The notes under the pieces were generated by a model. That model saw nothing but the letters and a program-made list of their open reading frames with translations, was not told the DNA's origin and did not search any database. Of a DNA stretch of 32,000 nt, positions 1,184 to 28,909 are shown piece by piece. Position 1 is the stretch's first letter. Every line of letters starts with the position of its first letter. A program made the translations under genes and the position numbers. Source of the DNA: Lachnospiraceae bacterium (GTDB lineage Bacteria; Bacillota; Clostridia; Lachnospirales; Lachnospiraceae); the NCBI GenBank assembly GCA_015057505.1, contig SVEG01000002.1, positions 147,910 to 179,909 of the forward strand, given 5' to 3'.

Positions 1184-3448
1184 CTATAGTTTTTTTAGCT
1201 TTGCAAATGACGCAAATAATTTCTTCACGCCAGCGGTATCGAAATTCACGGTTACCTCGTAATCCCTGCCGCCTTCTACAATAGCTGTTACCATTCCGAC
1301 ACCGAACTTGACGTGGCTTACTGTATCGCCGACCTCATAATCAAGTGCAGCGGCTTTTGTAACAGTAAACTGCTTGGTTTCGTAGGGCTTTCTGTAAAAT
1401 GCATTACGAGCCTCGTTACCGATTGGTGCTGTGGATTCTCCCACAGAACCCGATAATATAAATTTGTCAGTATAACCCCTGTTCTCGGCAGATGCCTGTG
1501 GTCGCTTAGTAATCTTCTCCTCTGCATCTGTAAGATGCGCCGGAACCTCACGAAGGAAACGTGACATCATGTTAAATCTTGTCTCGCCCCTAAGTATTCT
1601 CTGCTTAGCATATGACAGTGTCAAATGCTCTTGTGCACGCGTAATTCCCACATAGCAAAGTCTTCTCTCTTCCTCAATTTCCGCTGTCGCATCTTCTGCA
1701 TTTATTGACATGGAGCTGGGAAACAGCCCTTCTTCAAGACCGCACAGATATACGCAAGGGAATTCAAGTCCTTTGGCACTGTGAAGTGTCATAAGAGTAA
1801 CTCTGTTCTCGGAATCTTCCAGACTATCTATATCAGCAATTAACGATACTTCTTCAAGGAACCCGAACAATGTCGGTTCCTCTGCAGTCTCCTCGTATTC
1901 TTTTATCTTGGTTATCAATTCGTCGATATTCTCGATACGTGCCTCTGCCTCATCACTCATATCAGCCTGAAGCTCGATAAGATATCCTGACTCTTCAACA
2001 ATCGCTTTTGCAAGCTCAGTAAGCGACAAGCTCGCTTTCCTCGCTTTGATTCCCTCTATAAGCTCCACAAAAGGCTTAAGCTTCGCTGCCGCCTTCTTTA
2101 ACGTATCAATCTGTTCTGCCTCTCTAAGCGCCTCATAAAAACTGATATCATGTCGGACCGCATAATCCTGCACTCGTTCTATCGTCGTAGCACCAATGCC
2201 ACGTTTGGGCACATTGATAATACGCCTTACCGCCAAATCATCCCTGCCGCCGTCAACCGTCTTAAGGTATGCGAGAATATCCTTGATTTCTTTACGCTGA
2301 TAGAAGTTAACACCACCGACAAGCTTGTACGGCAGATTCGCCCTTACACACTGCTCCTCTATCGTACGTGACTGTGCATTGGTTCTGTAAAGCACCGCAA
2401 AATCACTGTACGGTCTGAGTTCCTCTCGCACATATTTTTTAATATCGTTAACGATTCGCTCTGCTTCCTCGTATCCATTATTACATGTAAAAATCGCCAG
2501 CTTGTCGCCGTCTTCCTTCTCCGTCCAAAGCGTCTTATCCTTTCTGCCGGAATTATTACGGATAACGCCGTTGGCAGCATTAAGAATATTGGCGGTTGAA
2601 CGGTAATTCTGCTCAAGTCTTATTACCTTTGCGCCCGGATAAGCCTTCTCGAAGTCAAGAATATTGCGGATGTTAGCGCCTCTGAATTTGTAAATTGACT
2701 GGTCATCGTCACCTACCACGCAGAGGTTCTTATATTTTCTGGCAAGGAGCTCAATAAGCTTAAACTGCACTGTATTCGTATCCTGGTACTCGTCAACCAT
2801 TATGTACTTAAAACGATCCTGATAATAGTCAAGCACATCCTCATTATGCAAAAACAAATCCACAGTCTTACAAATCAAATCGTCAAAATCCATGGCATTG
2901 TTTTTCTTAAGTTGCTTCTGATATTCCCTGTAAACCTCCGCAACTTTACGCTTGATAAAATCACCGCCGGCATTTATCTCAAACTCATCCGGCATAATCA
3001 TCTCATCCTTAGCTTTGGAAATCATACCGAGAATAGCTTTCTCACTTAAATGCTTGGTATCAATCTCCATACGCTTACAGATATCCTTCATAAGTGACTT
3101 CTGATCGTCCGTATCATAAATCGTAAAGTTTGTATCAAAACCGAGTCTGTCCGCATATCTTCTTAAAATCCTTACACAGCTTGAATGGAACGTACTTACC
3201 CAGATACTCTCCGCGCCAAAGCTAACAAGTCTGTCAACACGGTCGCGCATCTCGCCTGCAGCCTTATTGGTAAAAGTAATCGCCATGATGTTCCACGGAT
3301 TTACACCCATTTCTTCAATCAAATACGTGATTCTATATGTTAAAACTCGGGTTTTCCCCGAGCCTGCCCCTGCCAGTATCAGAAGCGGCCCTTCTGTATG
3401 AAGGACCGCAGCTTTTTGCATGGCATTCAATTGTTCATAAATGCTCAT
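1184..3448 (-). CDS. pcrA: ATP-dependent DNA helicase PcrA (UvrD/Rep superfamily 1A)
   Basis: Walker A AGAGSGKTRVLT, motif II VDEYQDTN, and TFHS, QNYRS and TLMTLHSAKGLEF motifs. The C-terminal Tudor-like tail (GDTVSHVKFGVGMV) is typical of PcrA. 754 aa. AGGAAG RBS 8 nt upstream. Confidence 0.95.
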   Translation of the reverse strand: MSIYEQLNAMQKAAVLHTEGPLLILAGAGSGKTRVLTYRITYLIEEMGVNPWNIMAITFTNKAAGEMRDRVDRLVSFGAESIWVSTFHSSCVRILRRYADRLGFDTNFTIYDTDDQKSLMKDICKRMEIDTKHLSEKAILGMISKAKDEMIMPDEFEINAGGDFIKRKVAEVYREYQKQLKKNNAMDFDDLICKTVDLFLHNEDVLDYYQDRFKYIMVDEYQDTNTVQFKLIELLARKYKNLCVVGDDDQSIYKFRGANIRNILDFEKAYPGAKVIRLEQNYRSTANILNAANGVIRNNSGRKDKTLWTEKEDGDKLAIFTCNNGYEEAERIVNDIKKYVREELRPYSDFAVLYRTNAQSRTIEEQCVRANLPYKLVGGVNFYQRKEIKDILAYLKTVDGGRDDLAVRRIINVPKRGIGATTIERVQDYAVRHDISFYEALREAEQIDTLKKAAAKLKPFVELIEGIKARKASLSLTELAKAIVEESGYLIELQADMSDEAEARIENIDELITKIKEYEETAEEPTLFGFLEEVSLIADIDSLEDSENRVTLMTLHSAKGLEFPCVYLCGLEEGLFPSSMSINAEDATAEIEEERRLCYVGITRAQEHLTLSYAKQRILRGETRFNMMSRFLREVPAHLTDAEEKITKRPQASAENRGYTDKFILSGSVGESTAPIGNEARNAFYRKPYETKQFTVTKAAALDYEVGDTVSHVKFGVGMVTAIVEGGRDYEVTVNFDTAGVKKLFASFAKLKKL

Positions 3449-6604: not shown

Positions 6605-8923
6605 ATGACTGATTTTTTTGTTGAACCTAATCTTGTATCAAAAACTAAAGGAAGCTTTATTTATTTGAGCAATCAACCCGTGACGGAACTATCTTTGCTG
6701 ATGTCCGGTAAGGTAACCGTAGTCCGTGGTAATACGTCATTCGAAGCAAAGCCCGGAGAAATCATCGGTCTGTATGACATTATGGCTGACAAATACGATT
6801 ATACCTACATTGCTGCCGAAAACTGCATTTTAATGACATTATCCGGCACAAACATCGGCGCGCTTGAGAAGGACCTTACTATGTATCCCAATATACGTGG
6901 TGCACTTGTATCTTCCATGGGTAAGCTCGCAGTGTATCTTTCCACACAGTATAATAAATATATGCGCCAGACAGAATCTCTGTGCACGTTTCTCAACACC
7001 AAGTTCGAAAGCTATAAAGCACTGTGCAATGATAATTTGATATCCCTTCCTGAACTTTCAGATATGTCAGAAGATTTCTCTCTACTGTCGAATGACTTAG
7101 AGTCAGATTCTTCTGATTACATAAATTATTATAACGAACTGCTTAAAATGGAATCATCAATCTGCAACACTTTCTATGAAGCAAGTGAATACATTGCTCT
7201 TACCCATTTTAAAGAGGCTTTTGAACTTTGTGAAGACTATTCCCAACATCTTAAGGATGTTCTTGCAAGGCTAAAGAAGGCCGGCATGCATATTATCGGT
7301 ACTGACAGTAACTGCCTTTTCGGAATGTATTGCGAGCTTCAGTCTGAGCTTCTAAAATCCGGACGTAATACTGCTCTTACTTATCGAAATATTACGGAGA
7401 TGTTTTCACATGCTCAGCTTATCGGCATCAACAAGACTTTACTTGCCAATGCCTCTGCCTTGGTTAACGAGATTTCTAAAAATACTGCTGATGCGCTTGC
7501 AAAAGGCGACTCCTCACAAAAGGAAATATCCACAGATGATTTGGAGAAAATCAAACAAACTGCCACAGGAATGCTTGATAAGCTTCTTGCCTACTCCAAT
7601 CTACCCTCAGACGCACTCATTCCCTTTAAAGATGCTGTCCTTGCGTTTCGCAATCTCAAAGACAAGAGTGATACGAGTGAAACTACTACCACCATTCGCA
7701 AGACAATTGCAAAACATTTTTATCCTATATATGAAGCAATCTTTTTTAAATATGTGGAAACCGGTGCCAGAAATAAGCTCGTGGAGTTGTTTCTTAACAC
7801 CTGCCTTATTGACGAAAATCTTGTATCGGAGAGCCAATTGCAGGAGCTCTTCACAATGAATATTGATTCTGTCAAGGATATTAACGGTTTTCAGATATAT
7901 ACAATGTACGAATGGCTACTTGAGATATTTAGGGGCAATCAGGAACCTTCACGTAACGAATTTGATCAGGACTATGCGGCGACAATTCGTGATCGTAAAC
8001 GAACTGAGAAGCTTACGGACACACAGGTAACCACAATGATGATGGACAAAAAAGCGAAGACCAAATTTGAAATTCAGAATTTCTTCCGTTCCTCACACAG
8101 AATTACCTGCGGTCAGATTCTTGGATTTTGTCCTATTTTGTACAGTGACTATCATGATGAGCAGTTCTCTTCTCTTTTTGTTTCAAAGAAAAGAGTAACC
8201 GATACTTTTGCAAAATACAGAGCGCTTGATTTTTCAATTTTTTATAGAACTGTCCCCTACGAAATCAACCGATTCGGTCTTGAGAAGGAAATCCTTCAAA
8301 AAGAAGTTCTTCCTTGTATTATCCTTAATCCGATAATCGGCCAAAAAGGTATTATGTGGCAGGAGCTTGCCGGTGCAAAAAAAGATACACCCGCCCGCTT
8401 CTCCTTCCCTATCTTATTCAGGGGTGACTTTAACACTTGTGTTCTCCGCTCCTTCGGTCAATTCCGTTGGGAATTATGCAAGAACATTGAAGGTCCGCAC
8501 TGGAGCGACATACGCCAGAAATCCCTTACTTCGGAGTACTTTGATTACATCTCTTACTACAAGAAGAACCATGAGATTTCAACTGAAGCCAAGGAGAAAA
8601 TCAAGACAGTACTCACTAAATATCACAATAATTTTAAAGAAGTATTTACCAACGATTACTTAGCATACATGACCTACGAATCCGGCGGAGCATCACGCCT
8701 TAACAAGGTTGCACGTGCAATACTCTTCCGCTACTGCCCGTTTAGTATAGAAACACGTAAGTCACTGCTTTCCAGTCCGGTATATACCGACTTAATCGCT
8801 TATCACGATAAAAACTGTGCTGCAAAGCTTCGCCGAATCGGCGGTGTTCTTGCCACCATCACCAATAACGGCGGCGACATCACACCTGAACTTGAAGTTA
8901 ATCGTAACTTCTACACATTATAA
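6605..8923 (+). CDS. Large cytoplasmic protein of unknown function, 772 aa, with an N-terminal cNMP-binding/cupin-like beta-barrel segment
   Basis: The long ORF starts 54 nt after the SBP gene, with a GAGGT RBS. The N-terminal ~110 aa (KVTVVRGNTSFEAKPGEIIGLYDI...AAENCILMTL) resemble a Crp/cNMP-binding barrel. The rest is helical with no TM segment and no motif I recognise. Confidence 0.6.
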   Translation: MTDFFVEPNLVSKTKGSFIYLSNQPVTELSLLMSGKVTVVRGNTSFEAKPGEIIGLYDIMADKYDYTYIAAENCILMTLSGTNIGALEKDLTMYPNIRGALVSSMGKLAVYLSTQYNKYMRQTESLCTFLNTKFESYKALCNDNLISLPELSDMSEDFSLLSNDLESDSSDYINYYNELLKMESSICNTFYEASEYIALTHFKEAFELCEDYSQHLKDVLARLKKAGMHIIGTDSNCLFGMYCELQSELLKSGRNTALTYRNITEMFSHAQLIGINKTLLANASALVNEISKNTADALAKGDSSQKEISTDDLEKIKQTATGMLDKLLAYSNLPSDALIPFKDAVLAFRNLKDKSDTSETTTTIRKTIAKHFYPIYEAIFFKYVETGARNKLVELFLNTCLIDENLVSESQLQELFTMNIDSVKDINGFQIYTMYEWLLEIFRGNQEPSRNEFDQDYAATIRDRKRTEKLTDTQVTTMMMDKKAKTKFEIQNFFRSSHRITCGQILGFCPILYSDYHDEQFSSLFVSKKRVTDTFAKYRALDFSIFYRTVPYEINRFGLEKEILQKEVLPCIILNPIIGQKGIMWQELAGAKKDTPARFSFPILFRGDFNTCVLRSFGQFRWELCKNIEGPHWSDIRQKSLTSEYFDYISYYKKNHEISTEAKEKIKTVLTKYHNNFKEVFTNDYLAYMTYESGGASRLNKVARAILFRYCPFSIETRKSLLSSPVYTDLIAYHDKNCAAKLRRIGGVLATITNNGGDITPELEVNRNFYTL

Positions 8924-8945
8924 TCAAAATCAACAGAAACTATGC

Positions 8946-8974
8946 TTGACACTTTTAGCTATTTTGATTATAAT
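8946..8974 (+). promoter_or_regulatory. Sigma-A type promoter for the T-box leader
   Basis: TTGACA (8946-8951), a 17-nt spacer, then TATAAT (8969-8974). Both hexamers match consensus perfectly. Confidence 0.8.
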
Positions 8975-8996
8975 ATTGAAAATGCTAATAAATAAA

Positions 8997-9267
8997 GACA
9001 ATGAAGAGAAGAGTATTCTTGTTGCGCATCCACAGAGAGTTCCCGTAAGCTGAGAGGGAATGGTTCGGGCAGGAAGAAACAAGCCTCGGAGTCGCATACG
9101 GATCTTATTTTTATAAGTGATGCTATGACGCATGGTTCACGTTACGAATCGGAGTGTGTAATGCACTTACTGAGGTTCATACAGTGATGTATGAATGCAC
9201 CGGGTGGCACCGCGATATATGTTTATATTCGCCCCTGTGGAAATCTCCACAGGGGTATTTTTATTTT
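8997..9267 (+). promoter_or_regulatory. T-box riboswitch leader (tRNA-sensing transcription attenuator)
   Basis: Stem I spans 8997-9093. It has K-turn halves GAC-A-AUGA and GGA-GUC, an AGUA box (GAGTA, 9011-9015), an AG bulge AGAGAG (9034-9039) and a distal loop GTAAGCTGAGA (9045-9055). An F-box-like CGTTA lies at ~9140. The T-box sequence is AATGCACCGGGTGGCACCGCG (9194-9214). The antiterminator (GGG-UGGCACC-GCG...CGC-CCC) competes with the terminator at 9232-9267. Confidence 0.9.
9232..9267 (+). terminator. T-box leader intrinsic terminator
   Basis: CCCCTGTGG (9232-9240), loop AAATCT, CCACAGGGG (9247-9255), then TATTTTTATTTT. Confidence 0.9.
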
Positions 9268-9283
9268 CAAAGGAGAGACTCAC

Positions 9284-11278
9284 ATGATTAACAGACGAAT
9301 CAGACCGGACGAGCGTCCGATTTTCCCCAAAAGAGCCGTTGTTACGGCAGGTATGCCCTACGGCAACAAAACACTTCACTTCGGCCATGTAGGCGGAATG
9401 TTCCTTCACGCTGACACATTTGCACGTTTCCTTCGTGACAGAATAGGCAAGGAAAATGTTATCTTCGTTTCAGGTACGGACTGCTATGGTTCACCTATCG
9501 TAGAAGCTTACCGCAAGCTCGTTGAACAAGGATTTGACGGAACTATTGAAGATTATGTAATGGGCAATCACGAAAAGCAGAAACAGACTCTTGAGGATTA
9601 CGAAATCGGCCTTAACCTTTACGGTGCATCCGCTTTCGGCGATACAGGTAAAATGCATACAGAAGTTTCTGACTTTGTTTTTGAACGTTTATATGAGAAC
9701 GGCTGGCTTGAAAAGCTTTCCACACCACAGTTTTTTGACCCTGACAAAGAAGTGTTCTTAAACGGTCGTCAGGTTGTAGGAAAATGCCCCATCGAGGGTT
9801 GTTGCTCTGAAAAAGCTTACGCTGACGAATGTGCACTCGGTCATCAGTACATGCCTACTGATTTGATTGACCCGATCAGTACTCTTTCCGGCAAAAAGCC
9901 TTTAATCAAGAATGTTACCAACTGGTATTTTAAGTTAGAAGAATGCACGGAGCTTATGACAGAATACATCCAGTCACTTCGTGCAAACACCAACACACGT
10001 AAATATCAGTTAAATACAATAGAGGAATTTTTAAAACCTCCGTACATCTATGTACAGAGAAAGAACATCGAAGATCTTGCCGCGCTCGAAGCAGAGTTTC
10101 CTGAGCATGAGACAATTGATGAAGAAAAGAAGCCTTCCATTACTTTTGTTTTTCGCAATCTTGACGGACGTGACAAGGCCCGTGCAGTGCTTGACGCCAA
10201 GTCCATCCGCTACAGAACAGGTAAGACTCTCGTTCCTTTCCGTCTTTCAGGTAATATCAAATGGGGCGTTCCCGTTCCCGACAAGGAAGACATGAAGGAT
10301 ATGACATTCTGGGTATGGCCCGAGTCATTGTGGGCACCGATTTCCTTCTCCCGTACTTTCCTCGCAAAACAGGGTACAGACGAGAACGAATGGAAAAAAT
10401 GGTGGGATGACGATGATGCTTGTGTTTACCAGTTCATCGGTGAAGACAATATTTACTTCTACGGTATCGCAGAGATGGCTATGGCCGTTGCTCTTAAAAA
10501 CAAATACTACGATACACCGGATTTGAGCAAGGTTCATTTTCCTCACTTAATCGCAAATAACCACGTTTTATTCATGGATAAAAAAGCAAGCAGCAGCTCA
10601 GAGATTAAGCCTCCGATGGCAGACGAGCTTTTGGAATTCTACACAGCAGAGCAGCTCAGAATGCATTTCTTAAGCCTCGGTCTTTCAACCAAGAGCGTTG
10701 GTTTCAAGCCGCAGGTTTACATGCCTGAAAATGAGCGTCAAGGTCAGGATACGGTACTTAAGGAAGGTAACCTTCTTACGAACGTATTTAACCGACTTAT
10801 CCGCTCCTGCTTCTACTCAATCCAGTCATATTATGACTGCAAGATACCGGAAGGAACTGTTGATGAGAAGATTCTCACACTTGCAAAAGATGCAGTACTT
10901 GAATATGAGCATCACATGTACAACCATGATTTCCATAGAATCACTTATGTACTTGACAGCTTTATCCGCGAAATCAACAAGCACTGGGTAAATAACATTA
11001 AGGTTGCAGAAAAAGAAGAAAACGACGCACTTCGTCGCCAGATTTTAGTAGATTGCTTCTACGGAATCAAGGTAATTTCTACTCTCCTTCATCCTATCGC
11101 ACCTGTAGGTTGTGAAATGGTTAGAGAGTACCTCAATGTAGATGAACGTCTCTGGAGCTGGGATTATATCCTTGAGCCGCTTGCAGCACTTATGAGCGAC
11201 AATCATGAATTCAAGTTCCTTGAGCCGAAGGTTGATTTCTTTAAGAAATTAGATTGCCAGTTTGGTGCTAATGAATAA
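9284..11278 (+). CDS. Class I aminoacyl-tRNA ligase of the methionyl-tRNA synthetase family, 664 aa. Divergent: the KMSKS loop reads KASSS, and there is no C-terminal tRNA-binding domain.
   Basis: HIGH motif as MPYGNKTLHFGH, GTDCYG (vs GTDEHG) and a zinc-knuckle region GKCPIEGCCSEKAYADEC. The block YMPTDLIDPISTLSGKKP...NWYFKL is collinear with E. coli MetG as I recall it. Start moved to the ATG at 9284 (AAGGAGAG RBS) because the ORF-track start at 9191 lies inside the T-box leader. Confidence 0.8.
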   Translation: MINRRIRPDERPIFPKRAVVTAGMPYGNKTLHFGHVGGMFLHADTFARFLRDRIGKENVIFVSGTDCYGSPIVEAYRKLVEQGFDGTIEDYVMGNHEKQKQTLEDYEIGLNLYGASAFGDTGKMHTEVSDFVFERLYENGWLEKLSTPQFFDPDKEVFLNGRQVVGKCPIEGCCSEKAYADECALGHQYMPTDLIDPISTLSGKKPLIKNVTNWYFKLEECTELMTEYIQSLRANTNTRKYQLNTIEEFLKPPYIYVQRKNIEDLAALEAEFPEHETIDEEKKPSITFVFRNLDGRDKARAVLDAKSIRYRTGKTLVPFRLSGNIKWGVPVPDKEDMKDMTFWVWPESLWAPISFSRTFLAKQGTDENEWKKWWDDDDACVYQFIGEDNIYFYGIAEMAMAVALKNKYYDTPDLSKVHFPHLIANNHVLFMDKKASSSSEIKPPMADELLEFYTAEQLRMHFLSLGLSTKSVGFKPQVYMPENERQGQDTVLKEGNLLTNVFNRLIRSCFYSIQSYYDCKIPEGTVDEKILTLAKDAVLEYEHHMYNHDFHRITYVLDSFIREINKHWVNNIKVAEKEENDALRRQILVDCFYGIKVISTLLHPIAPVGCEMVREYLNVDERLWSWDYILEPLAALMSDNHEFKFLEPKVDFFKKLDCQFGANE

Positions 11279-20196: not shown

Positions 20197-22236
20197 TTAC
20201 TTCTTAATCTCCATATAAGCATGCTTCTCCGGACTCTTCTCATAAACAGCAGGCACAACCTTCTCACCCTCTGTATTAACCGTATAAATCTCCGGCACCG
20301 GAACCTTTGTTGTCTCCGCTCCAAAATAGAAACTTGTATTGGCAGGCTGGTTATAATGATTATTCTGCCATACAATTGCCTCTCTGTAAGTCACATCATG
20401 CATAAGTGTCGGCATTCTGTACTCTGTTGGGATATTAGTGCTGTAAATACGCATCTCAGTATTGTCAGCGGCACGAACAATAACCTCATCTCGCCAGTCA
20501 CCGAGAAAATCCGCTGTAAGACAGTTTTGCCCCTTACTTCCGCCGTTAGAAGCACTGCCGCTTGCAGTAAGAACCGTATTCATAACTTTTTCTTCCCAGT
20601 CCCATTTATAAATCGTTATCTCACTCTTAGCATCATGGTCAAGAAGTTCTGCAAGCAAATCTCCATCCCAGTACATCTTCATATTCATGGATGAAGGACA
20701 AGCCTCGTTAAGCACCTCACCGGAAAAAGCCATAAGTGGTGTACCCGTGGAACCCCACATCTCCCAACCTCTGCTTGTCGGATCAATATCTGCGGCACGT
20801 GAACGTCCCGTATCCTTAGGCTTTGTCTCACCAAAAATAATCTCACCAGTGAGTGCACTATGTAAGCCGATGTTTACCGGAAGATTCGCAGTCTCCCTGC
20901 ACGCCCACGTAAAATACTCATATGTATCCGGACTCATAACAGCCACATCATACGCATCACCGTGTCCAAGCTTAATCTCTGTTCCATCCTCTTTTACACC
21001 CTTAACAATATACATTATACTTCCATCATCATCTATCGCTGCTGCACCTGTGATAATCTCATCCTTGCCGTCATAGTCCACATCAGCAACCGCTATACTG
21101 TGATAGCCTGTGTTAAACAAATTCTCCAAAGAATTCTTATTCTCGCAGTCAACTGTCCAGCCAACTTCAAACTCACCATCTTTTATATTCCATGTTGCAA
21201 CCTTACAAGCTGCCCAACAACCACGGAAATGCACAATACTTGGTGTCTCTCCGTTAAGATATGCCACACAAAATCCATAATGGCTAGCTCTTTTTGTTGT
21301 TTTACCTGTATCATAAGAATTAAGCCATGATTCAAGTGGGTCTCTTGACGGTAAAAGTTCAGTTCTTGCTACTTCTTCTCCTGTCTCACCGTCATACATT
21401 GATAAAAATTCAGGACCTTGGCTCAGATACTGTCTATCTTTCATTATTACAAGTGCACTTCCACGCTTACTGTAATCAGTTACACCGTCGCCATCCATGT
21501 CTCCAATCTTATTACCTACACCATCAACCGTCCCTTCAAACGAACGCATTACCACCTCTGATTTACCATCGCCATCCAAATCATAAACAATAAAATTAAT
21601 ATCTATTGTATTAATCTCATTCGGACCTATATCAATGGTCCACATGTGTGTTCCGTCAAGCTCATACGCCTCTAAAAGCGGATACACATCCCTACTGACC
21701 ACATTCATATTTGCCGGATTACGACGCACAACTATCTCATACTGTCCGTCACCATCCAAATCACCTACGGACGCATCATCTATATTATAATCTCCAATTT
21801 CATACTGTTTAACCGGAACCGACAGATACTCTCTGCTAAAATTAATGGCTGTCTCTGTCTTATCAGTCTGCTCCGCCTTCTTTACAACAGGAACAAGTGT
21901 GTACACAGCATTAGCATCTTTAGTAGCATCATAAGAAGTATCCGTATAATTGGTTAAGCTCTCAATAGGCTTCTTGTTAAGAAGCGTACCGTCCTTGTAC
22001 ACGTTAAACTTAAGCTCTGTTGAATCGGTTCCCAAAAAACGCCAGCTTAAAAACATACCTTCCTCCGAAGGTATCGCCACAAATCCTCTGTCAAGCTCCT
22101 CCATCTGCTTAAGAGACACCGGACGATTCTCATACATTAAGTCCATCTCCGTCTTCGGTTTTTCTTCCTTACAGCCCATAGCACATACAAGCATTGTTGT
22201 AGCAAGTGTCAAACAGCATAAACGTCGTAATTTCAT
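20197..22236 (-). CDS. Polysaccharide lyase family 11 rhamnogalacturonan lyase-like beta-propeller lipoprotein (YesW/YesX-like)
   Basis: KQMEELDRGFVAIPSEEGMFLSWRFLGT, DDASVGDLDGDGQYEIV, YWDGDLLAELLD, and LTADFLGDWRDEVIVR...MRIYSTNIPTEYRMPTLMHD..YREAIVWQNNHYNQP are collinear with B. subtilis YesW as I recall it. Lipobox AMGC. ATG at 22236 with a GGAGG RBS. Confidence 0.8.
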   Translation of the reverse strand: MKLRRLCCLTLATTMLVCAMGCKEEKPKTEMDLMYENRPVSLKQMEELDRGFVAIPSEEGMFLSWRFLGTDSTELKFNVYKDGTLLNKKPIESLTNYTDTSYDATKDANAVYTLVPVVKKAEQTDKTETAINFSREYLSVPVKQYEIGDYNIDDASVGDLDGDGQYEIVVRRNPANMNVVSRDVYPLLEAYELDGTHMWTIDIGPNEINTIDINFIVYDLDGDGKSEVVMRSFEGTVDGVGNKIGDMDGDGVTDYSKRGSALVIMKDRQYLSQGPEFLSMYDGETGEEVARTELLPSRDPLESWLNSYDTGKTTKRASHYGFCVAYLNGETPSIVHFRGCWAACKVATWNIKDGEFEVGWTVDCENKNSLENLFNTGYHSIAVADVDYDGKDEIITGAAAIDDDGSIMYIVKGVKEDGTEIKLGHGDAYDVAVMSPDTYEYFTWACRETANLPVNIGLHSALTGEIIFGETKPKDTGRSRAADIDPTSRGWEMWGSTGTPLMAFSGEVLNEACPSSMNMKMYWDGDLLAELLDHDAKSEITIYKWDWEEKVMNTVLTASGSASNGGSKGQNCLTADFLGDWRDEVIVRAADNTEMRIYSTNIPTEYRMPTLMHDVTYREAIVWQNNHYNQPANTSFYFGAETTKVPVPEIYTVNTEGEKVVPAVYEKSPEKHAYMEIKK

Positions 22237-22250
22237 AAAAGCCTCCAAAA

Positions 22251-25055
22251 TTATTTTTTCATTCGGTTGAGAAGCTGGGAGGTATCAAGTCTCTCCTGTG
22301 TGGGTTCTTTCTTCGCCGCCTTCTTCTCTTTCTTATCAGTTTTTTCCGAAGAACTCTTCTTACTCTTTGCAAAACCTGTCTCCGCCTTATCGGCAGTAAT
22401 CATATCCACTGCCGGAGCAGTTTTCTTAGAATTCTTACCTGACTTGGCCGCACTCTCTGCCTTCTTCTCTGCTCTCGCCTGAGCCCATGCCTTAAGCTTT
22501 GCTATCGGCAGATACTCAAGCAGATTGATGCGGAAACGTCTGATTGCTATGTCCGCGATAAAAAGTATCGCCGCCAGAACAAGTAGAAACGTTCCAAGCT
22601 CTGTTCTCTGTTTAACCATATCAAGTTCTTCATCAAAAACTTCATTTGCGACGGTAATCATATTACCGCCGACCGCTTTTGTATATTCCTCCAGAACTGT
22701 GGTTTCCTCATAAAAACGATACTCAAGCGAATACTGCATCATCGTTGCAGTATTAATGCTTCCGATAGTCTCGCCGTTCTCCTTCTGCTGAAGATTGATG
22801 CTGTAAACTCCCGTACCCTCCATCTCAAAGTCCGTCGTATATACGCCGGGCGTTACAGGGTCAAGCGTTACAACCTTGGACTGACCGTTATCATCGTAAA
22901 TTGTAGCCTGAACGCTAGTTGATGCGTTAAAATCTTCCGTCACAAATTTTATCGTGGCAGTCTTGCCGTTTTGCTCAACCTCGGCATACGCACCGTCCAT
23001 TCCCATGTCTGTAGTTATATACTGTATAAGATTATACCACAATCTTGATGTTTTGTCCCATCCTGCCCAGTTGGCAGACCAATTATTTTTTACATCGGAG
23101 GTCCATGCAACAGTTTTACCAAGTCCGTACTGCCAACAGCACAAAAGCGGATCACCTTCAGAGGACTGCAAAAGCTGCGTGGCCCTTGCTTTTCTCGTCG
23201 TCGCCACATATCCAAAAAGTGACGGCAGACCGTTTTCTGCCACAGAGCTTATCATTTCGTCATTAGATGTTACAATCGGTACAAAATTACCGTCCACAAG
23301 ATAAGAGTTAACCGACAAAAATACCTCCTGCGCAAAAATACGCGGGATATCCGAATCTATATCCGTATAATAAAAACGTCCGCCGCATTCCTCGGCAAGC
23401 ATGTTAAGAAGTGTCTGGTTACATCCCTGTCCTACCGCTACCGTTGAAAGTGTAATCTGACCGTTATTAATTCTGTTAATAACCTTGGGATAATTATTAT
23501 ATGTGTCCTGTCCGTCGGTAAGCAAAATAATATGCTTTACCTTGGCAGGATTTTTCTCAAGTGAAACTGTTGCCGCTTCAAGTGCCGGATATATCGAAGT
23601 TCCGCCACCAAGCTCTATTGAATATATTGCATCCTCGATTGCCCCACGGTCAGATGCCTTTTGAAGCTTAACTATCTCCTGATAACCGTCATCAAATGCC
23701 ACTACACCTATATAATCCGTATCTCTTAAGTTATCAAGTGCCGCTGCCGCCGCCTGCTTTGCAAGGTCGAGATTCGTTATTACACCATTGCCGTCCGACA
23801 TACTTCCCGACTTATCAATTACCATCATAATCGCCATCGTCGGAATCTCGTTTTCGCCCTGAAGGTCCATATCTACGGGAAGCACTGTTTCAAGTGCCGT
23901 ATCCTTATAATTACCGAGTGCATAACTGTTGTTACCTCCCGTAGTTATAAAGCCTCCGCCGTAATCCTTTACATAGGCCTCAATATTCTCCATAAAGCCT
24001 TCTCGCAAATCATCGGCATATACATTTACAAAAACAATTCCAGCGTACTGGTTCATCTCTGAAAGGCTTCCCGGAGCCGTCACCGGCTGTACAACCTGAT
24101 AGCGCACCTGAATACTGTCCAGCACCTTTACAAATTCCGAAGACTCTCCTGCCGTTCCTTCTACAATAAGAATCGGCTTACGTGTAGAAATATTGGTATA
24201 CGCGAGATACTCATTATTGGCAGTTATTGTATCTTCCTCTGCATCCACCTGTACACGATATGTCTTTAAGCCTTCCTCCGACTGAGTATCCTTAAATACA
24301 AAAGTATTAACGCCCTTTTGCAGATTTACCTTCTGCTGTCCTTTAAGGGTTCTTCCTGAATACAAGCTGACTGTTGCCGGACTTGCCACGTTACTTTCAA
24401 TCTTAACCGTAATTGTAAAGTTCTCACCTGTTCCGACACTGTCAGGAACGGAAATATCGCTTACACACACTTCGGCACTGCTTCCCGTCTCCATTTTTAC
24501 TACCTCGACAAGACATTTGGAAGTTGCAACCGAAGAAATCGTATTTTTAAGATTGCCTTCATTCTCAACACCGTCCGTCAAAAGCACGATACGTTTTGCC
24601 GAATCCTCCGGCATCATCGCAAGTGCCATCGTAACCGCACCTTCAAGATTGGTCGCGGTCTTCGTGACATCAGTCTGAAATTCTGAAAAGGTTATCTCTT
24701 CAGACACAAACTGCTCTACCTTTGCATCGCTTCCGAACGCCACAACACCGATGCTGTCATCGCCCGATTTTTCCTTAATTGCATCATTTACAAAGTGAAG
24801 CAGTTCGTCTCCGTTTTCCTTCATGCTGTCCGATATATCAAGCAGGAAAACTGTAGATACTGCACTGCCTTTCCACTTCATGCTTACACCGCTGAGCGCC
24901 AAAATAAGAAGCATAGCAATAAGTGCACGCACACTAATCTGCAAAACTCTGTGTGCCTTGTTTTTAACAAACATATATTTTGCAGAGAATATTAACAAAC
25001 CGATAACTATCGGTATTCCTATCAAAACTAAAGGTCTGGAAAATTCTATGTTCAT
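22251..25055 (-). CDS. Large membrane-anchored protein with two von Willebrand factor A domains, a GATase1-like middle domain and a Lys-rich C-terminal tail (BatB-like), 934 aa
   Basis: N-terminal TM pair like the BatA N-terminal domain. MIDAS motifs VFLLDISDSM and MMVIDKSGSM. The middle segment ILIVEGTAGES...GGGFITTGG resembles the DUF1355/class-I amidotransferase-like fold. A C-terminal TM is followed by a KKxxKK-rich tail. Confidence 0.75.
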   Translation of the reverse strand: MNIEFSRPLVLIGIPIVIGLLIFSAKYMFVKNKAHRVLQISVRALIAMLLILALSGVSMKWKGSAVSTVFLLDISDSMKENGDELLHFVNDAIKEKSGDDSIGVVAFGSDAKVEQFVSEEITFSEFQTDVTKTATNLEGAVTMALAMMPEDSAKRIVLLTDGVENEGNLKNTISSVATSKCLVEVVKMETGSSAEVCVSDISVPDSVGTGENFTITVKIESNVASPATVSLYSGRTLKGQQKVNLQKGVNTFVFKDTQSEEGLKTYRVQVDAEEDTITANNEYLAYTNISTRKPILIVEGTAGESSEFVKVLDSIQVRYQVVQPVTAPGSLSEMNQYAGIVFVNVYADDLREGFMENIEAYVKDYGGGFITTGGNNSYALGNYKDTALETVLPVDMDLQGENEIPTMAIMMVIDKSGSMSDGNGVITNLDLAKQAAAAALDNLRDTDYIGVVAFDDGYQEIVKLQKASDRGAIEDAIYSIELGGGTSIYPALEAATVSLEKNPAKVKHIILLTDGQDTYNNYPKVINRINNGQITLSTVAVGQGCNQTLLNMLAEECGGRFYYTDIDSDIPRIFAQEVFLSVNSYLVDGNFVPIVTSNDEMISSVAENGLPSLFGYVATTRKARATQLLQSSEGDPLLCCWQYGLGKTVAWTSDVKNNWSANWAGWDKTSRLWYNLIQYITTDMGMDGAYAEVEQNGKTATIKFVTEDFNASTSVQATIYDDNGQSKVVTLDPVTPGVYTTDFEMEGTGVYSINLQQKENGETIGSINTATMMQYSLEYRFYEETTVLEEYTKAVGGNMITVANEVFDEELDMVKQRTELGTFLLVLAAILFIADIAIRRFRINLLEYLPIAKLKAWAQARAEKKAESAAKSGKNSKKTAPAVDMITADKAETGFAKSKKSSSEKTDKKEKKAAKKEPTQERLDTSQLLNRMKK

Positions 25056-25074
25056 ACCCTTCTCTTTTCCGGCA

Positions 25075-26886
25075 TTATCTTCTGATGTACACTATCCATT
25101 CAATGCACAAAAGAATCAGTGCCAATATAATTATTACATTACGCAAGTTAAGCGATGAGTTAACCGTAGCCTGCACAACCGATGTCCCTGCCTCCAAGCT
25201 GCCACCCGGAGTGTTCTGTATGAAGCTTTCGTTTTTAGGGAAATTAACCGCAAAAACTTCCGAAAGCTTCTCACCGTCCGCATTCTGCTCCACCTCATAC
25301 ACACCGGTTTCATTAGTACCTGTATAATTTACTATCGTTCCGACAAGCTCCTCATTCTTGCCGTCAGGACGCTCTATAACAGGTTTTGCCCCGTCTATCT
25401 TACCGCTTACCTTTATTGCACTTCCGGCATTTACAACAGAGGCTGAAAGCATACCTGTGCTAACGCACTCATTCATAATATTGTAAATAAGTATCGGGAA
25501 TTCTGATTTAAGCGGAAGCTCCGTATCATGAAAATCCATACCGAGCACACATACCTGCTGTGTCCCGTAAGTTCCGATAAAGCCCGCACTGAAATTACCT
25601 GCCGTAAGGAAGCTGTCAGCCCAGCCCGGGACTTCCATGGCCTTGACCTTGCTTGCGCCAAAGCTGTAATCCTCAAGATACTTTGTAACCTTGCTGTCCT
25701 TAACCTTTAAAAGTATTCCTTCCAGTGTGTCCGCAACCGTATAAAGCTCCGGACATTCACAGTTTATAAATAGCATACTGCCATTCTTCGGAAGCTCCGC
25801 AGGAACCATTCCGTCAAAAACATACAAGTCATACTCCTGACTCAAAAAATCTTTAAATCCGTCTATGTCATTGGACTTGGTAACTTTTACCCCATCCATA
25901 AGCGCCATCGCTTTTTCAAGATAAAGGTTCTGCTCCGTCATAAGAAGCACGTTACACTCGGATGCCTCTGTAATTACATCATAGCATCCGTTATCAAGAG
26001 TAAGTGCGTCCTTCACGTCATGAAGCTCTGCATAAATAACCTTACCGTCAAATGCAAGATTTTCAAAATATACTATCTCACTGTCGCCCGAAGGAATCGT
26101 AACCTCCTTAACGGCAAGCATCTCATCATCACCGTAAAGATTGATATCCGTCTTAAGCTCCTTACTTCCAAAGTTAGAAACCTTCGCAAGAACCGTAAGC
26201 ATTCCCTCGCTGTCCGTACCGTGACCGACATACTCCACCACAGCATTATCCTGCTCTGAGTAAACATCAACGATATAACCGCCCGTAGTTTTACAGGATA
26301 CATATGTATCCGTAAAATATACTACCTCTGCCGACTCCCACTGCGCTATCATGGACTCTGCCATTTCCATACCAAACGAGCAGTCACCCATGTAGTTTGT
26401 GGCCTCTATCGCATTTAAACGCCTTTTTGCGAGACTTTTATCAACAGAGTCTGTAAGTACAAGCACCGCCTCTTTATCGCTCGTAATAATCGAAATCGAC
26501 GTATCTCCGGGCAATTTATCAACATAATCAATTGCCTCTGACACCGCAACTTCCATCCTTGTATGTCCGTCGTCATATTTTGTATTCATACTGCCGCTCG
26601 TATCAAGCACAAGCACAACATGTCCCGCACTCGTTGTCTCCGACTTGATATACGGCGACATAAGCGCAAAAATAAGTATAAGTACCGTTGCAATTTGCAA
26701 ATACATAAGGAGATTTTTCTTGAGCTTCTCCCAAGGAGTATTTGCCTGCATGTTCTTATACATTTCCTTCCACAAGAAAAGCGACGAAAACGGATGGTCC
26801 ACCGCTTTTTGCTTAAGAAGGTACATTATTATGATAATAGGTATTAAAACCAGCAATGCCAAAGGCCATAAATATAAAAATTTCAT
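25075..26886 (-). CDS. BatA-like membrane protein with a VWA domain, 603 aa
   Basis: Aerotolerance-regulator-type N-terminus MKFLYLWPLALLVLIPIIIIMYLL...PFSSLFLW. MIDAS motif VLVLDTSGSM. C-terminal TM. AGGAGAA RBS. Confidence 0.75.
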   Translation of the reverse strand: MKFLYLWPLALLVLIPIIIIMYLLKQKAVDHPFSSLFLWKEMYKNMQANTPWEKLKKNLLMYLQIATVLILIFALMSPYIKSETTSAGHVVLVLDTSGSMNTKYDDGHTRMEVAVSEAIDYVDKLPGDTSISIITSDKEAVLVLTDSVDKSLAKRRLNAIEATNYMGDCSFGMEMAESMIAQWESAEVVYFTDTYVSCKTTGGYIVDVYSEQDNAVVEYVGHGTDSEGMLTVLAKVSNFGSKELKTDINLYGDDEMLAVKEVTIPSGDSEIVYFENLAFDGKVIYAELHDVKDALTLDNGCYDVITEASECNVLLMTEQNLYLEKAMALMDGVKVTKSNDIDGFKDFLSQEYDLYVFDGMVPAELPKNGSMLFINCECPELYTVADTLEGILLKVKDSKVTKYLEDYSFGASKVKAMEVPGWADSFLTAGNFSAGFIGTYGTQQVCVLGMDFHDTELPLKSEFPILIYNIMNECVSTGMLSASVVNAGSAIKVSGKIDGAKPVIERPDGKNEELVGTIVNYTGTNETGVYEVEQNADGEKLSEVFAVNFPKNESFIQNTPGGSLEAGTSVVQATVNSSLNLRNVIIILALILLCIEWIVYIRR

Positions 26887-26900
26887 GGTTTTCTCCTATC

Positions 26901-27767
26901 CTATGCCAATCTTGAAAGTGTTCCGAAGAATATACTGTCGAGGCTTTCATCCGACATTACGCGAAGATAAGACGCCGCATATTTTCTCGAAACCGTATCA
27001 ATATGATTTATGAAATCATTGTAGTTACTCTTGTATTCCTTATCAAGCGCACTGCTCATAGTTATCCGCATACCGGCATTTGTCTCGCTGTCGAGAAGAT
27101 TAAGAGTTCCTTCAAGTCCCGGATTTACCTCCTCGGGCGAAAGCACCTGTATTAGAATAACCTCCTGCTTACTGAAGGTCAGGTATTTTAAAATGTCTTC
27201 AAGATTTTCGGTATAAAAATCTGAAATAACTATCGAAACGCCGCGCTGCTTGATATTGCTTCTTTTGATGCATGAAAGCAAATCTGCCTCACCATCAAAA
27301 TTAATCTGTTCGAGTCTCTCTATCGTCTTCGCAAAGGCCTGACGTCCCGTCACTCCCTTATGTACGGTAAGTCCGTTCCCCTGCATTATATTAAGAATAA
27401 GACGATCCGAGTTCTCAAGCACACAATATGAAAGTGCCGCGGCAATTCTCTGTGCGCATACTGATTTGGCCTTTTCACCGAAATCCATGGACTTGCTTCC
27501 GTCCACGAATATCCTGAAAACGCCTTCTTTTTCCTCCATAAAAAGCTTTACAAAAAGCCTGTCAAATCTGCCATAAGCATTCCAGTCAATTCTTCTGATA
27601 TCGTCACCGAGTATGTACTCGCGAAAATCCGAAAACTCTACGGAATTACCCTTGGCATTGGACTTCCTTCCGCCATTCATACCTGCGGCAAGACGCATCT
27701 TCATGGACATTCTGAAGGTATTTAATTTGTGATAAAACTCAGCATTAAAAATCTTTTCGTCTGCCAT
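26901..27767 (-). CDS. DUF58-family protein (MoxR-associated)
   Basis: Signature FREYILGDDIRRIDWNAYGRFDRLFVKLFMEEKE. 288 aa. AGGAG RBS. Confidence 0.85.
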   Translation of the reverse strand: MADEKIFNAEFYHKLNTFRMSMKMRLAAGMNGGRKSNAKGNSVEFSDFREYILGDDIRRIDWNAYGRFDRLFVKLFMEEKEGVFRIFVDGSKSMDFGEKAKSVCAQRIAAALSYCVLENSDRLILNIMQGNGLTVHKGVTGRQAFAKTIERLEQINFDGEADLLSCIKRSNIKQRGVSIVISDFYTENLEDILKYLTFSKQEVILIQVLSPEEVNPGLEGTLNLLDSETNAGMRITMSSALDKEYKSNYNDFINHIDTVSRKYAASYLRVMSDESLDSIFFGTLSRLA

Positions 27768-27836
27768 ATAACTACTACTCCTGCTCTTTTTGTACTGTCA
27801 GTGTTTACTACTGTACAGTACATAACATATTTTATC

Positions 27837-28817
27837 TTACATTTCGATGCTCTCGATTATCTTGGTGATAATCTCGTCCGTCGTAATTCCGTCAGCAAGC
27901 GCTTCAAAGCCCGGCATTATACGATGTCTGAGTGCCGGATATGCCACTGCCTTGATATCCTCGAATGCTACATTGGCTCTGCCTTCGATAAGCGCACGCG
28001 CTTTTGCCGTCTGGAAAATAGCCTGTGCAGCTCTGGGGCTCGCACCGCAGGAAACGTACTTTTTAACATAGTCGGTAGCTGTCGCAAGCTCGGGATGTGT
28101 TGCCACAACAAGCTTAAGCGCATACTCCTGTACCGCATCTGCGATAGGCATGTCTCTTATCACATTACGCATGCGGATAATATCCTCGCCGTTAATTATT
28201 GCGTTAATCTCTGTCTTTTTATTCGTTACCGTAATATCCATGATTTCCTTAAGCTCTTCAAGTGTAGGGAAATCCACATGAATCTTAAAAATAAAACGGT
28301 CAAGCTGTGCCTCAGGCAGAGGATATGTTCCCTCATTCTCGATAGGGTTCTGTGTTGCAAGAACCATGTAAGGTTCGGGCATCGGATAAGTCTGCTTTCC
28401 GACCGTAACTGTCTTCTCCTGCATCGCCTCAAGAAGCGCAGACTGTGTCTTCGGAGTCGCACGGTTAATCTCGTCCGCAAGTACGATATTTGCAAACACG
28501 GGACCGGGCTCAAACTTAAATACGTTCTGTCCGTCTTCCTTTACGATAAGGTTCGTACCTGTAACGTCCGCAGGCATAAGGTCAGGCGTAAACTGAATTC
28601 TTGAAAACTGAATATCAAAAACCTTCGCTATTGTTTTTACAAGCTGTGTCTTACCAAGACCGGGCACACCTTCAAGGAGTACGTTACCATTGGTAAGCAT
28701 CGCAAGAATAACCTGTCTTATTACATCCTTCTGACCGATAATCGCCTTTCCGATTTCAGCCTCGCAGGCTTTAACTTTCTCTATTATTTCCCTTAAATCA
28801 TTTTCGTTCTGTATCAT
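27837..28817 (-). CDS. MoxR-family AAA+ ATPase
   Basis: Walker A LLEGVPGLGKT, Walker B IVLADEINRATPKTQSALLEAMQE, and ATQNPIE..GTYPLPEAQLDRF. I preferred the ATG at 28817 (AGAGGA 7 nt upstream) over the GTG at 28844. Confidence 0.9.
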   Translation of the reverse strand: MIQNENDLREIIEKVKACEAEIGKAIIGQKDVIRQVILAMLTNGNVLLEGVPGLGKTQLVKTIAKVFDIQFSRIQFTPDLMPADVTGTNLIVKEDGQNVFKFEPGPVFANIVLADEINRATPKTQSALLEAMQEKTVTVGKQTYPMPEPYMVLATQNPIENEGTYPLPEAQLDRFIFKIHVDFPTLEELKEIMDITVTNKKTEINAIINGEDIIRMRNVIRDMPIADAVQEYALKLVVATHPELATATDYVKKYVSCGASPRAAQAIFQTAKARALIEGRANVAFEDIKAVAYPALRHRIMPGFEALADGITTDEIITKIIESIEM

Positions 28818-28909
28818 TACATATCCTCTCTTTCTATACTTCACATAAGTGTTTACAAAATCTACGGCTGTGCACCGATTAATATGTTATAATTTAAATC
28901 CTCAAATTA

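Follow-up and report, generated by a model that had tools for sequence, protein, structure and literature searches.

A T-box riboswitch turns on genes whose products bring charging of the sensed tRNA back up, and few other sequence features say as directly as its specifier which tRNA a gene product is meant to serve. The leader described here lies at positions 8992-9239 of a 32,000-nt stretch of Lachnospiraceae contig SVEG01000002.1 (the window, meaning the whole stretch analysed), in front of a gene for a paralogue of methionyl-tRNA synthetase (MetRS); leader and gene are both on the forward (+) strand, as are all their features given below. It is probably a transcription-attenuating T-box riboswitch specific for tRNA-Gln, a reading that we hold at roughly four in five. 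Comparison with the canonical transcriptional T-boxes (RF00230; Bacillus subtilis tyrS and glyQS, Oceanobacillus iheyensis glyQ) reveals all the same modules. The window leader differs from them in that the 3' strand of its specifier loop is 9 nt instead of 7, the codon lies one base further from the GAA and is followed by G, and the aminoacyl-tRNA synthetase (aaRS) family of the regulated gene is not that of the tRNA apparently sensed. The RNA belongs to the T-box family, and what appears to be a rare Gln specificity, an enlarged specifier loop and a mismatched aaRS gene set it apart.

Gln is among the rarest T-box specificities in TBDB (bioRxiv 10.1101/2020.06.17.157016), and no Gln entry was found in the RegPrecise T-box tables. 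No description of the paralogue, or of a Gln T-box before a MetRS-like gene, was found in the literature and RegPrecise; TBDB may already list these leaders as Gln T-boxes. The T-boxes for Asn that precede aspS2-gatCAB in clostridia and streptococci are similar in that the sensed tRNA, and not the family name of the gene product, defines the pathway, which is that of an amide aminoacyl-tRNA. In those operons the roles are known (a non-discriminating AspRS and an amidotransferase), whereas the present gene encodes an uncharacterized MetRS paralogue and the tRNA would be tRNA-Gln.

Two further systems bear comparison on the enzyme side. Like GlnRS and the GluRS2/GatCAB route, the paralogue would serve the supply of charged tRNA-Gln, and it is linked to a GluRS-family gene; it has no homology to the catalytic domains of GlnRS or GluRS, and the shared role is a proposal. 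The MetRS-like domain of hydrazine synthetases and the MetRS paralogue described by Aravind (PMC2922099) are also repurposed MetRS paralogues. These belong to a different, cupin-linked family, whereas members of the present family stand alone or beside gltX, ileS or leuS.

The specifier and the discriminator

In an E-value-mode Rfam scan of 8850-9350, the leader is a full-length match to RF00230 (model positions 1-219 of 219, 87.1 bits, E 1.2e-19), with no AUG at the specifier position. All the canonical T-box elements named in an earlier reading made from the letters alone (the sequence-only reading) were recovered where that reading had placed them, by Rfam alignment and terminator scan. Stem I (8997-9093) opens with a K-turn formed by GAC-AAUGA (8997-9004) and GGA-GUC (9088-9093), in which 8997-8999 pair with 9091-9093, and continues with a lower helix of GAG (9006-9008) and CUC (9085-9087). 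The specifier loop above it has the 5' strand AAGAGUA (9009-9015), which contains the AGUA box (9012-9015), and the 3' strand GAAACAAGC (9076-9084). It is closed by a helix of UUCUUG (9016-9021) and CAGGAA (9070-9075), beyond which lie the AG bulge AGAGA (9034-9038) and the distal loop (9045-9055). The 3' side of the loop had earlier been drawn as 9073-9084; the K-turn and lower-helix anchors of that assignment stand, and GAA at 9073-9075 has to be moved from the loop into the helix above it. The absence of AUG from the loop is confirmed, as is the position of the AUG at 9060-9062 within the distal helix.

As one sequence cannot settle whether AAC, ACA, CAA or AAG is read, orthologous leaders were compared. 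Scanning of species-representative genomes turned up orthologues of the regulated gene in at least 595 species, and 80 of the loci matched, which number at least 595, were fetched. A profile built from the leaders found the T-box immediately before the gene in 29 of these 80 loci; with that of the window, this makes a sample of 30 leaders, which come from Lachnospiraceae, Clostridium, Herbinix, Fusibacter, Vallitaleaceae and Peptostreptococcales. For Stem I, 29 distinct leaders were aligned (alignment A3) and scored on the Rfam-derived structure. Here 88.8% of the Stem I cells are paired, versus 71.4% in shuffles, and slid registers give only 39-46%. Double changes are seen at 18 of 21 pairs, the observed value being matched by none of 500 shuffles. 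All six pairs of the helix above the specifier loop covary, and the helix below it is 97.7% paired. Because the helices on both its sides are backed by pairing or covariation, the loop strand is fixed at 9076-9084.

Within this strand, the window would be read as GAA (the S-turn), a spacer A, the specifier CAA (9080-9082), the purine G and a C that is unpaired opposite A9009. CAA is a Gln codon and would pair with a UUG anticodon. The first two bases of the CA(A/G) columns are invariant in all 29 aligned leaders and the third is A in 24 and G in five. The base that follows is G in 28 of the 29, and the last loop base, opposite an unpaired A, varies freely between C, G, A and U. CAA/CAG is the sole triplet that stays synonymous over the 30 leaders: ACA becomes GCA and AAC becomes AGC in four of them (L013, L031, L052 and L063), and AAG becomes AGG or AGU in six. 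In three distant leaders (L076, L077 and L080) the strand has the canonical 7 nt and reads GAA-CAG-R. TBDB takes the specifier as nucleotides 2-4 from the 3' end of the Infernal-defined bulge (bioRxiv 10.1101/2020.06.17.157016), and this rule, applied in the +0 frame to the Rfam alignment of the window leader, gives CAA. Because CA(A/G) alone stays synonymous, the canonical-length loops read CAG and the TBDB rule gives CAA, the specifier is best read as the Gln codon CA(A/G). CAA had been listed among the earlier candidates and is now favoured, and the conserved CAA/CAG specifier of a Gln-specific T-box is found across the 29 aligned leaders.

A Met-specific T-box would have an AUG specifier and a UGGU bulge for A73. 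AUG occurs at the specifier position in none of the 30 orthologous leaders, and the window bulge reads UGGC. In 18 of the 29 aligned leaders the last two helix bases and the G of the S-turn spell AUG, a triplet that is not conserved and that the window does not have. The suggestion that the leader does not sense tRNA-Met is upheld by the missing AUG and by the downstream protein, which is not a canonical MetRS. The sequence-only reading had also allowed for a simple variant among orthologous leaders with AUG and UGGU. The first half of this is contradicted, AUG being absent from the specifier position of all 30 leaders, and the second half is borne out in part, with a UGGU bulge in 12 of the 30.

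The bulge of the antiterminator is indeed UGGC, at 9205-9208, and the deduction that it implies G73 is sound. At the variable position of the bulge, 18 of the 30 leaders have C and the other 12 have U; none has A or G. Because G:U wobble is documented for Trp T-boxes in TBDB (bioRxiv 10.1101/2020.06.17.157016), such a mixture of C and U is the pattern expected opposite G73. The tRNA-Gln(UUG) of Bacillus ends in G-CCA, that is, it carries G73, and so do the tRNA-Gln(UUG) of a Clostridioides difficile element and that of Monoglobus pectinilyticus, whose record also carries an orthologue of the regulated gene. The tRNA-Lys of Monoglobus has A73. The only tRNA genes found in the 80 related loci are a tRNA-Leu and a tRNA-Thr.

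The default Rfam scan, at the gathering threshold, reported nothing in the window; 17 of the 18 orthologous leaders scanned against RF00230 lie above the gathering cutoff (96.6-121.4 bits). The T-box gathering score of Rfam 15 (93) drops a clearly genuine leader, and annotation at gathering level will miss similar copies.

The transcriptional switch and its proposed operation

A sigma-70-type promoter at 8946-8974 (TTGACA, a 17-nt spacer and TATAAT; 12 of 12 consensus bases) implies a transcript start about 10 nt ahead of the T-box match. Downstream of Stem I, the Rfam alignment places Stem II (9094-9127), a Stem IIA/B region that extends to 9145 and includes the F-box ACGUUA (9139-9144), and the Stem III hairpin (9175-9196), which also appears in the predicted fold of 9170-9275 (z = -4.2). 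The antiterminator (9202-9235), again from the Rfam alignment, starts with the T-box sequence GGGUGGCACCGCG (9202-9214), in which the bulge lies, and has its 3' strand at 9229-9235. An intrinsic terminator was found by the terminator scan and is also the minimum-free-energy hairpin; it comprises an 11-bp hairpin (9231-9256) followed by a U-run, to 9267. The 5' arm of the terminator, from 9231, overlaps the 3' strand of the antiterminator (9229-9235), and this overlap is the classic T-box switch.

Transcription would start at the consensus promoter, and Stem I would then capture tRNA-Gln(UUG), the anticodon of which could pair with CAA at 9080-9082. That the leader binds tRNA-Gln is deduced from its sequence and those of its orthologues. 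In the case of an uncharged tRNA, pairing of its GCCA terminus, with G73, to UGGC would stabilize the antiterminator, and RNA polymerase would read into the gene. With charged tRNA, the terminator would form instead. A mechanism such as this would induce the MetRS-derived enzyme when uncharged tRNA-Gln builds up.

The regulated gene and its product

The gene (9284-11278) follows a ribosome-binding site, GGAG, at 9272-9275 and encodes a MetRS-family paralogue of 664 aa. The NCBI annotation pipeline (PGAP) names it 'class I tRNA ligase family protein', the label it also gives to the other family members. Pfam finds PF09334 (tRNA-synt_1g; E 1e-63) and a weak PF08264 in the protein, and nothing else; PF00749, the catalytic domain of GlnRS and GluRS, was not found by Pfam. 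Any charging with Gln would make the paralogue an analogue of GlnRS and not a member of the GlnRS family. Every NCBIfam equivalog for MetRS scores below its cutoff (NF001100, 236.4 versus 587; TIGR00398, 190.8 versus 336).

The features of a subclass Ia class I aaRS are present, namely a Rossmann catalytic domain, HIGH and KMSKS-type motifs and a helical anticodon-binding domain. An AlphaFold2 (AF2) model (mean predicted local confidence, pLDDT, 79; predicted template-modelling score, pTM, 0.83) aligns with MetRS structures from end to end, at a TM score of ~0.8 and 15-24% identity, and the top 50 matches in the Protein Data Bank (PDB) are all MetRS. The likeness to MetRS (Pyrococcus abyssi, 1RQG; Escherichia coli, 1QQT) includes the HIGH motif, which is HFGH at residues 32-35, the Zn-knuckle region and KASSS at 434-438, which resembles the KFSTS of P. 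abyssi. By sequence alignment alone, on which the whole residue mapping onto E. coli MetRS is based, D52, Y15, W253 and A256/P257 are also kept. In addition to the low identity and the failed equivalog cutoffs, the paralogue differs from MetRS in its substrate pocket, in a PW anticodon motif that is not recognizable, in a family-specific insertion of ~70 aa (residues 251-321; window 10034-10246) relative to the P. abyssi and E. coli enzymes and, where it is regulated, in being apparently under tRNA-Gln control. The insertion is predicted to form a small alpha/beta subdomain (pLDDT 80-90). W568 was considered as the counterpart of the anticodon-stacking W461 and rejected, since Ruminococcus has Met at this position and the alignments do not agree with one another.

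The methionine side-chain pocket is replaced. The changes, in E. coli MetRS numbering, are L13M, Y260F, I297N, H301Y and W305E, which correspond to M24, F355, N389, Y393 and E397 of the paralogue. M24, F355, N389 and Y393 are invariant over 16 sequences (alignment A1), and all five replacements are identical in four other Bacillota orthologues; a Collinsella orthologue differs at three pocket positions (E24, Y355 and Q397). Y260 and H301 are presumably among the positions that have been used to re-engineer the specificity of MetRS. L13 and I297 are mutated positions named in the titles of PDB entries for engineered E. coli MetRS (8bru and 8brw), and 3h97 is titled as a mutant MetRS of modified specificity. 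A carboxamide would be a better fit than a thioether for the polar acidic pocket (N389, Y393 and E397). Judged from these residues and scores, the protein is MetRS-like in fold but is not a MetRS.

Distribution and gene neighbourhood

The window gene is monocistronic. Over the family, the downstream neighbours are heterogeneous, with no conserved partner, and the same-strand upstream neighbours are enriched in aaRS genes. The upstream gene is ileS in two loci (L020 and L021) and leuS in another (L074). In L054, L066, L068, L072, L096, Monoglobus and a Ruminococcus flavefaciens metagenome-assembled genome, the paralogue is preceded on its own strand by a GluRS-family gene, at a distance of 15-61 nt. 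The gap is 47 nt in Monoglobus pectinilyticus, and 15-18 nt in the R. flavefaciens assembly and another Ruminococcus-like contig, both of which were found from the GluRS-like protein of Ruminococcus albus. In R. albus 7 pRUMAL02, the GluRS-family gene is two genes upstream, with one small open reading frame between, and the pair adjoins lepA. This replicon is typed as a conjugative megaplasmid. The pair is seen in Ruminococcus, Monoglobus and Oscillospiraceae, and its loci include L090 (NC_014825.1, 131-4468), L089 (2286-6007), L094 (5001-8665) and L096 (5001-8657). The GluRS-family partner is 544-558 aa long and is often at or below the gltX cutoff, and the genes that flank the pair vary among loci. 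With 55% identity to the window protein and the same pocket residues, the GluRS-linked paralogues are its true orthologues.

The T-box context is found in Lachnospirales, Clostridiales and Peptostreptococcales, and the GluRS-pair context in Oscillospirales and Monoglobales. The gene pair would be an independent tie of the family to Glx-tRNA metabolism. As two unrelated contexts, a tRNA-Gln riboswitch and a GluRS gene pair, agree, the family appears to be tied to that metabolism. A search of all fetched loci with tblastn found no GlnRS and no canonical MetRS. The Arg358 signature of a 'discriminating GluRS' was also tried and set aside as uninformative; Arg is present both in the GluRS of L072 and in that of Borrelia.

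In Collinsella aerofaciens (Coriobacteriia; L091, 3980-6130), an orthologue with ~45-48% identity and the same N389 and Y393 adjoins queA and queH, which suggests that the family may have spread beyond Bacillota. Two other riboswitches lie beside paralogues: L040 has a strong but unrelated T-box (126.7 bits) on the opposite strand, at 2627-2860(-), and L014 has a cobalamin riboswitch, at 1727-1877(-).

Weighing of the readings

Several observations count against a tRNA-Gln-specific leader with an enzyme to match. The leader scores 5.9 bits below the Rfam 15 cutoff for RF00230. Its specifier loop is atypical: one additional base separates the codon from GAA, another precedes the helix, and the purine 3' of the codon is G where A is usual. 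ACA and AAC are each present in 25 of the 29 aligned leaders, so the frame is undecidable from one sequence. The UGGU bulge of 12 of the 30 leaders fits A73 equally well. There are no tRNA genes, for tRNA-Gln or any other tRNA, in the window or within 10 kb on each side of it on the source contig. A T-box precedes only 29 of the 80 orthologous genes, and none was found at the GluRS-linked loci checked (L096 not among them), including upstream of the linked GluRS genes. Finally, N391 and R395 (E. coli MetRS numbering), which we take to be anticodon-contact residues of E. coli MetRS, are conserved in the paralogue.

Since T-box control serves to replenish the charged form of the tRNA that is sensed, tRNA-Gln is the most likely substrate of the MetRS-derived enzyme, which most likely would charge it with Gln. 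A more specific proposal, which we put forward only tentatively, is that the MetRS-like family is a glutaminyl-tRNA synthetase derived from MetRS, paired with a GluRS-family gene in Oscillospirales and autoregulated by a tRNA-Gln T-box in Lachnospirales and Clostridiales. If this is true, it would constitute a third, previously unrecognized route to Gln-tRNA-Gln besides GlnRS and GluRS/GatCAB, widespread in gut and rumen Clostridia. Charging of tRNA-Gln by this enzyme would represent a new origin of an aaRS specificity and would alter the reconstruction of Gln-tRNA-Gln synthesis in major gut and rumen taxa.

The leader may instead sense tRNA-Gln while the enzyme does something other than charge it with Gln. 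It could charge it with Glu for amidation, take as its substrate the Glu-tRNA-Gln that the neighbouring GluRS-family enzyme makes, or join an amino acid to a non-tRNA acceptor. This is unlikely on balance, and still deserves to be taken seriously. The GluRS-family gene and the paralogue form a tight operon, with gaps of 15-18 nt, which suggests a two-enzyme pathway, and MetRS-like domains with non-tRNA acceptors are known, for example in hydrazine synthetases (PMC2922099, PMC12376268). However, the paralogue keeps a complete anticodon-binding domain and has no cupin or monooxygenase partner gene, and its polar acidic pocket seems ill-suited to a Glu side chain.

It is quite improbable that the gene encodes a divergent housekeeping or back-up MetRS, with a leader that is a drifted Met T-box or is cross-wired without meaning for the function of the enzyme. 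The MetRS fold and domain order and the retained N391 and R395 would fit such an enzyme, and older annotations, perhaps including RegPrecise, call such genes metS, metS2 or metS3 under Met T-boxes. Set against these are the CA(A/G) specifier, under selection over distant lineages, and the lack of AUG at that position in every leader, the best equivalog score of 236 bits versus 587, the replacement of five Met-pocket residues, which are invariant except that the Collinsella orthologue differs at three, and a conserved partner that is a GluRS-family gene and no methionine gene.

The two other tRNAs that the loop could nominate are less probable still. AAC (9078-9080) would make this an Asn-specific T-box, the preference of the sequence-only reading, with UGGC paired to the G73 that tRNA-Asn carries (PMC9976931). 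AAC is present in the window and in most aligned leaders, and T-boxes for Asn do control genes other than that for AsnRS, such as aspS-gatCAB in clostridia (RegPrecise tables). That preference finds no support: the four leaders with AGC would specify Ser, the first A of AAC is the last base of the invariant S-turn GAA, the triplet falls wholly within GAA-C in the short-loop leaders L076, L077 and L080, and in the window A-A-G separates it from the helix, which leaves it two bases too distant for the usual frame. A Thr-specific T-box can hardly be right either. ACA (9079-9081) does directly follow GAA, is itself followed by a purine A as in canonical GAA-NNN-A, is the register counted from the S-turn in the Rfam alignment and recurs in 25 of 29 leaders. 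However, four leaders have GCA (Ala) in its place, and the three canonical 7-nt leaders have CAG next to GAA. In addition, the tRNA-Thr(CGU) of locus L061, where the leader reads UGGC, has a U73 that cannot pair with the bulge C, albeit in a CGU isoacceptor where ACA needs UGU.

With tRNA-Gln as the tRNA sensed, the specifier supplies a concrete, testable hypothesis for the substrate of a conserved class I synthetase paralogue, and the linkage to GluRS genes independently supports it. Current pipelines label the paralogue either MetRS or 'class I tRNA ligase family protein'. Whichever role the enzyme has, the labels 'MetRS' for the genes and 'Met T-box' for the leaders would be wrong.

Other observations

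A glnS ~99% identical to that for chromosomal E. coli GlnRS is present on about 100 plasmids of ~90 kb from E. coli and Salmonella (for example NZ_CP029365.1, 84390-86048), and these copies dominated searches of PLSDB with E. coli and Acetoanaerobium GlnRS queries. A C. difficile plasmid (NZ_CP033217.1; L088, 210-284) encodes a tRNA with a CUA anticodon, called tRNA-Pyl by ARAGORN, in a cluster with Tyr, Gln, Lys, Ser and Ser tRNAs; this could be an amber suppressor. Elsewhere in the window, a cluster of BatA/VWA, DUF58 and MoxR-type AAA genes at 20197-28844(-) adjoins an RGI-lyase-like gene, and there are a Fic-domain gene and a gene for a sigma-70-family factor followed by an uncharacterized open reading frame of 386 aa. 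The cluster and the Fic-domain and sigma-factor genes are ordinary Lachnospiraceae-like chromosomal content.

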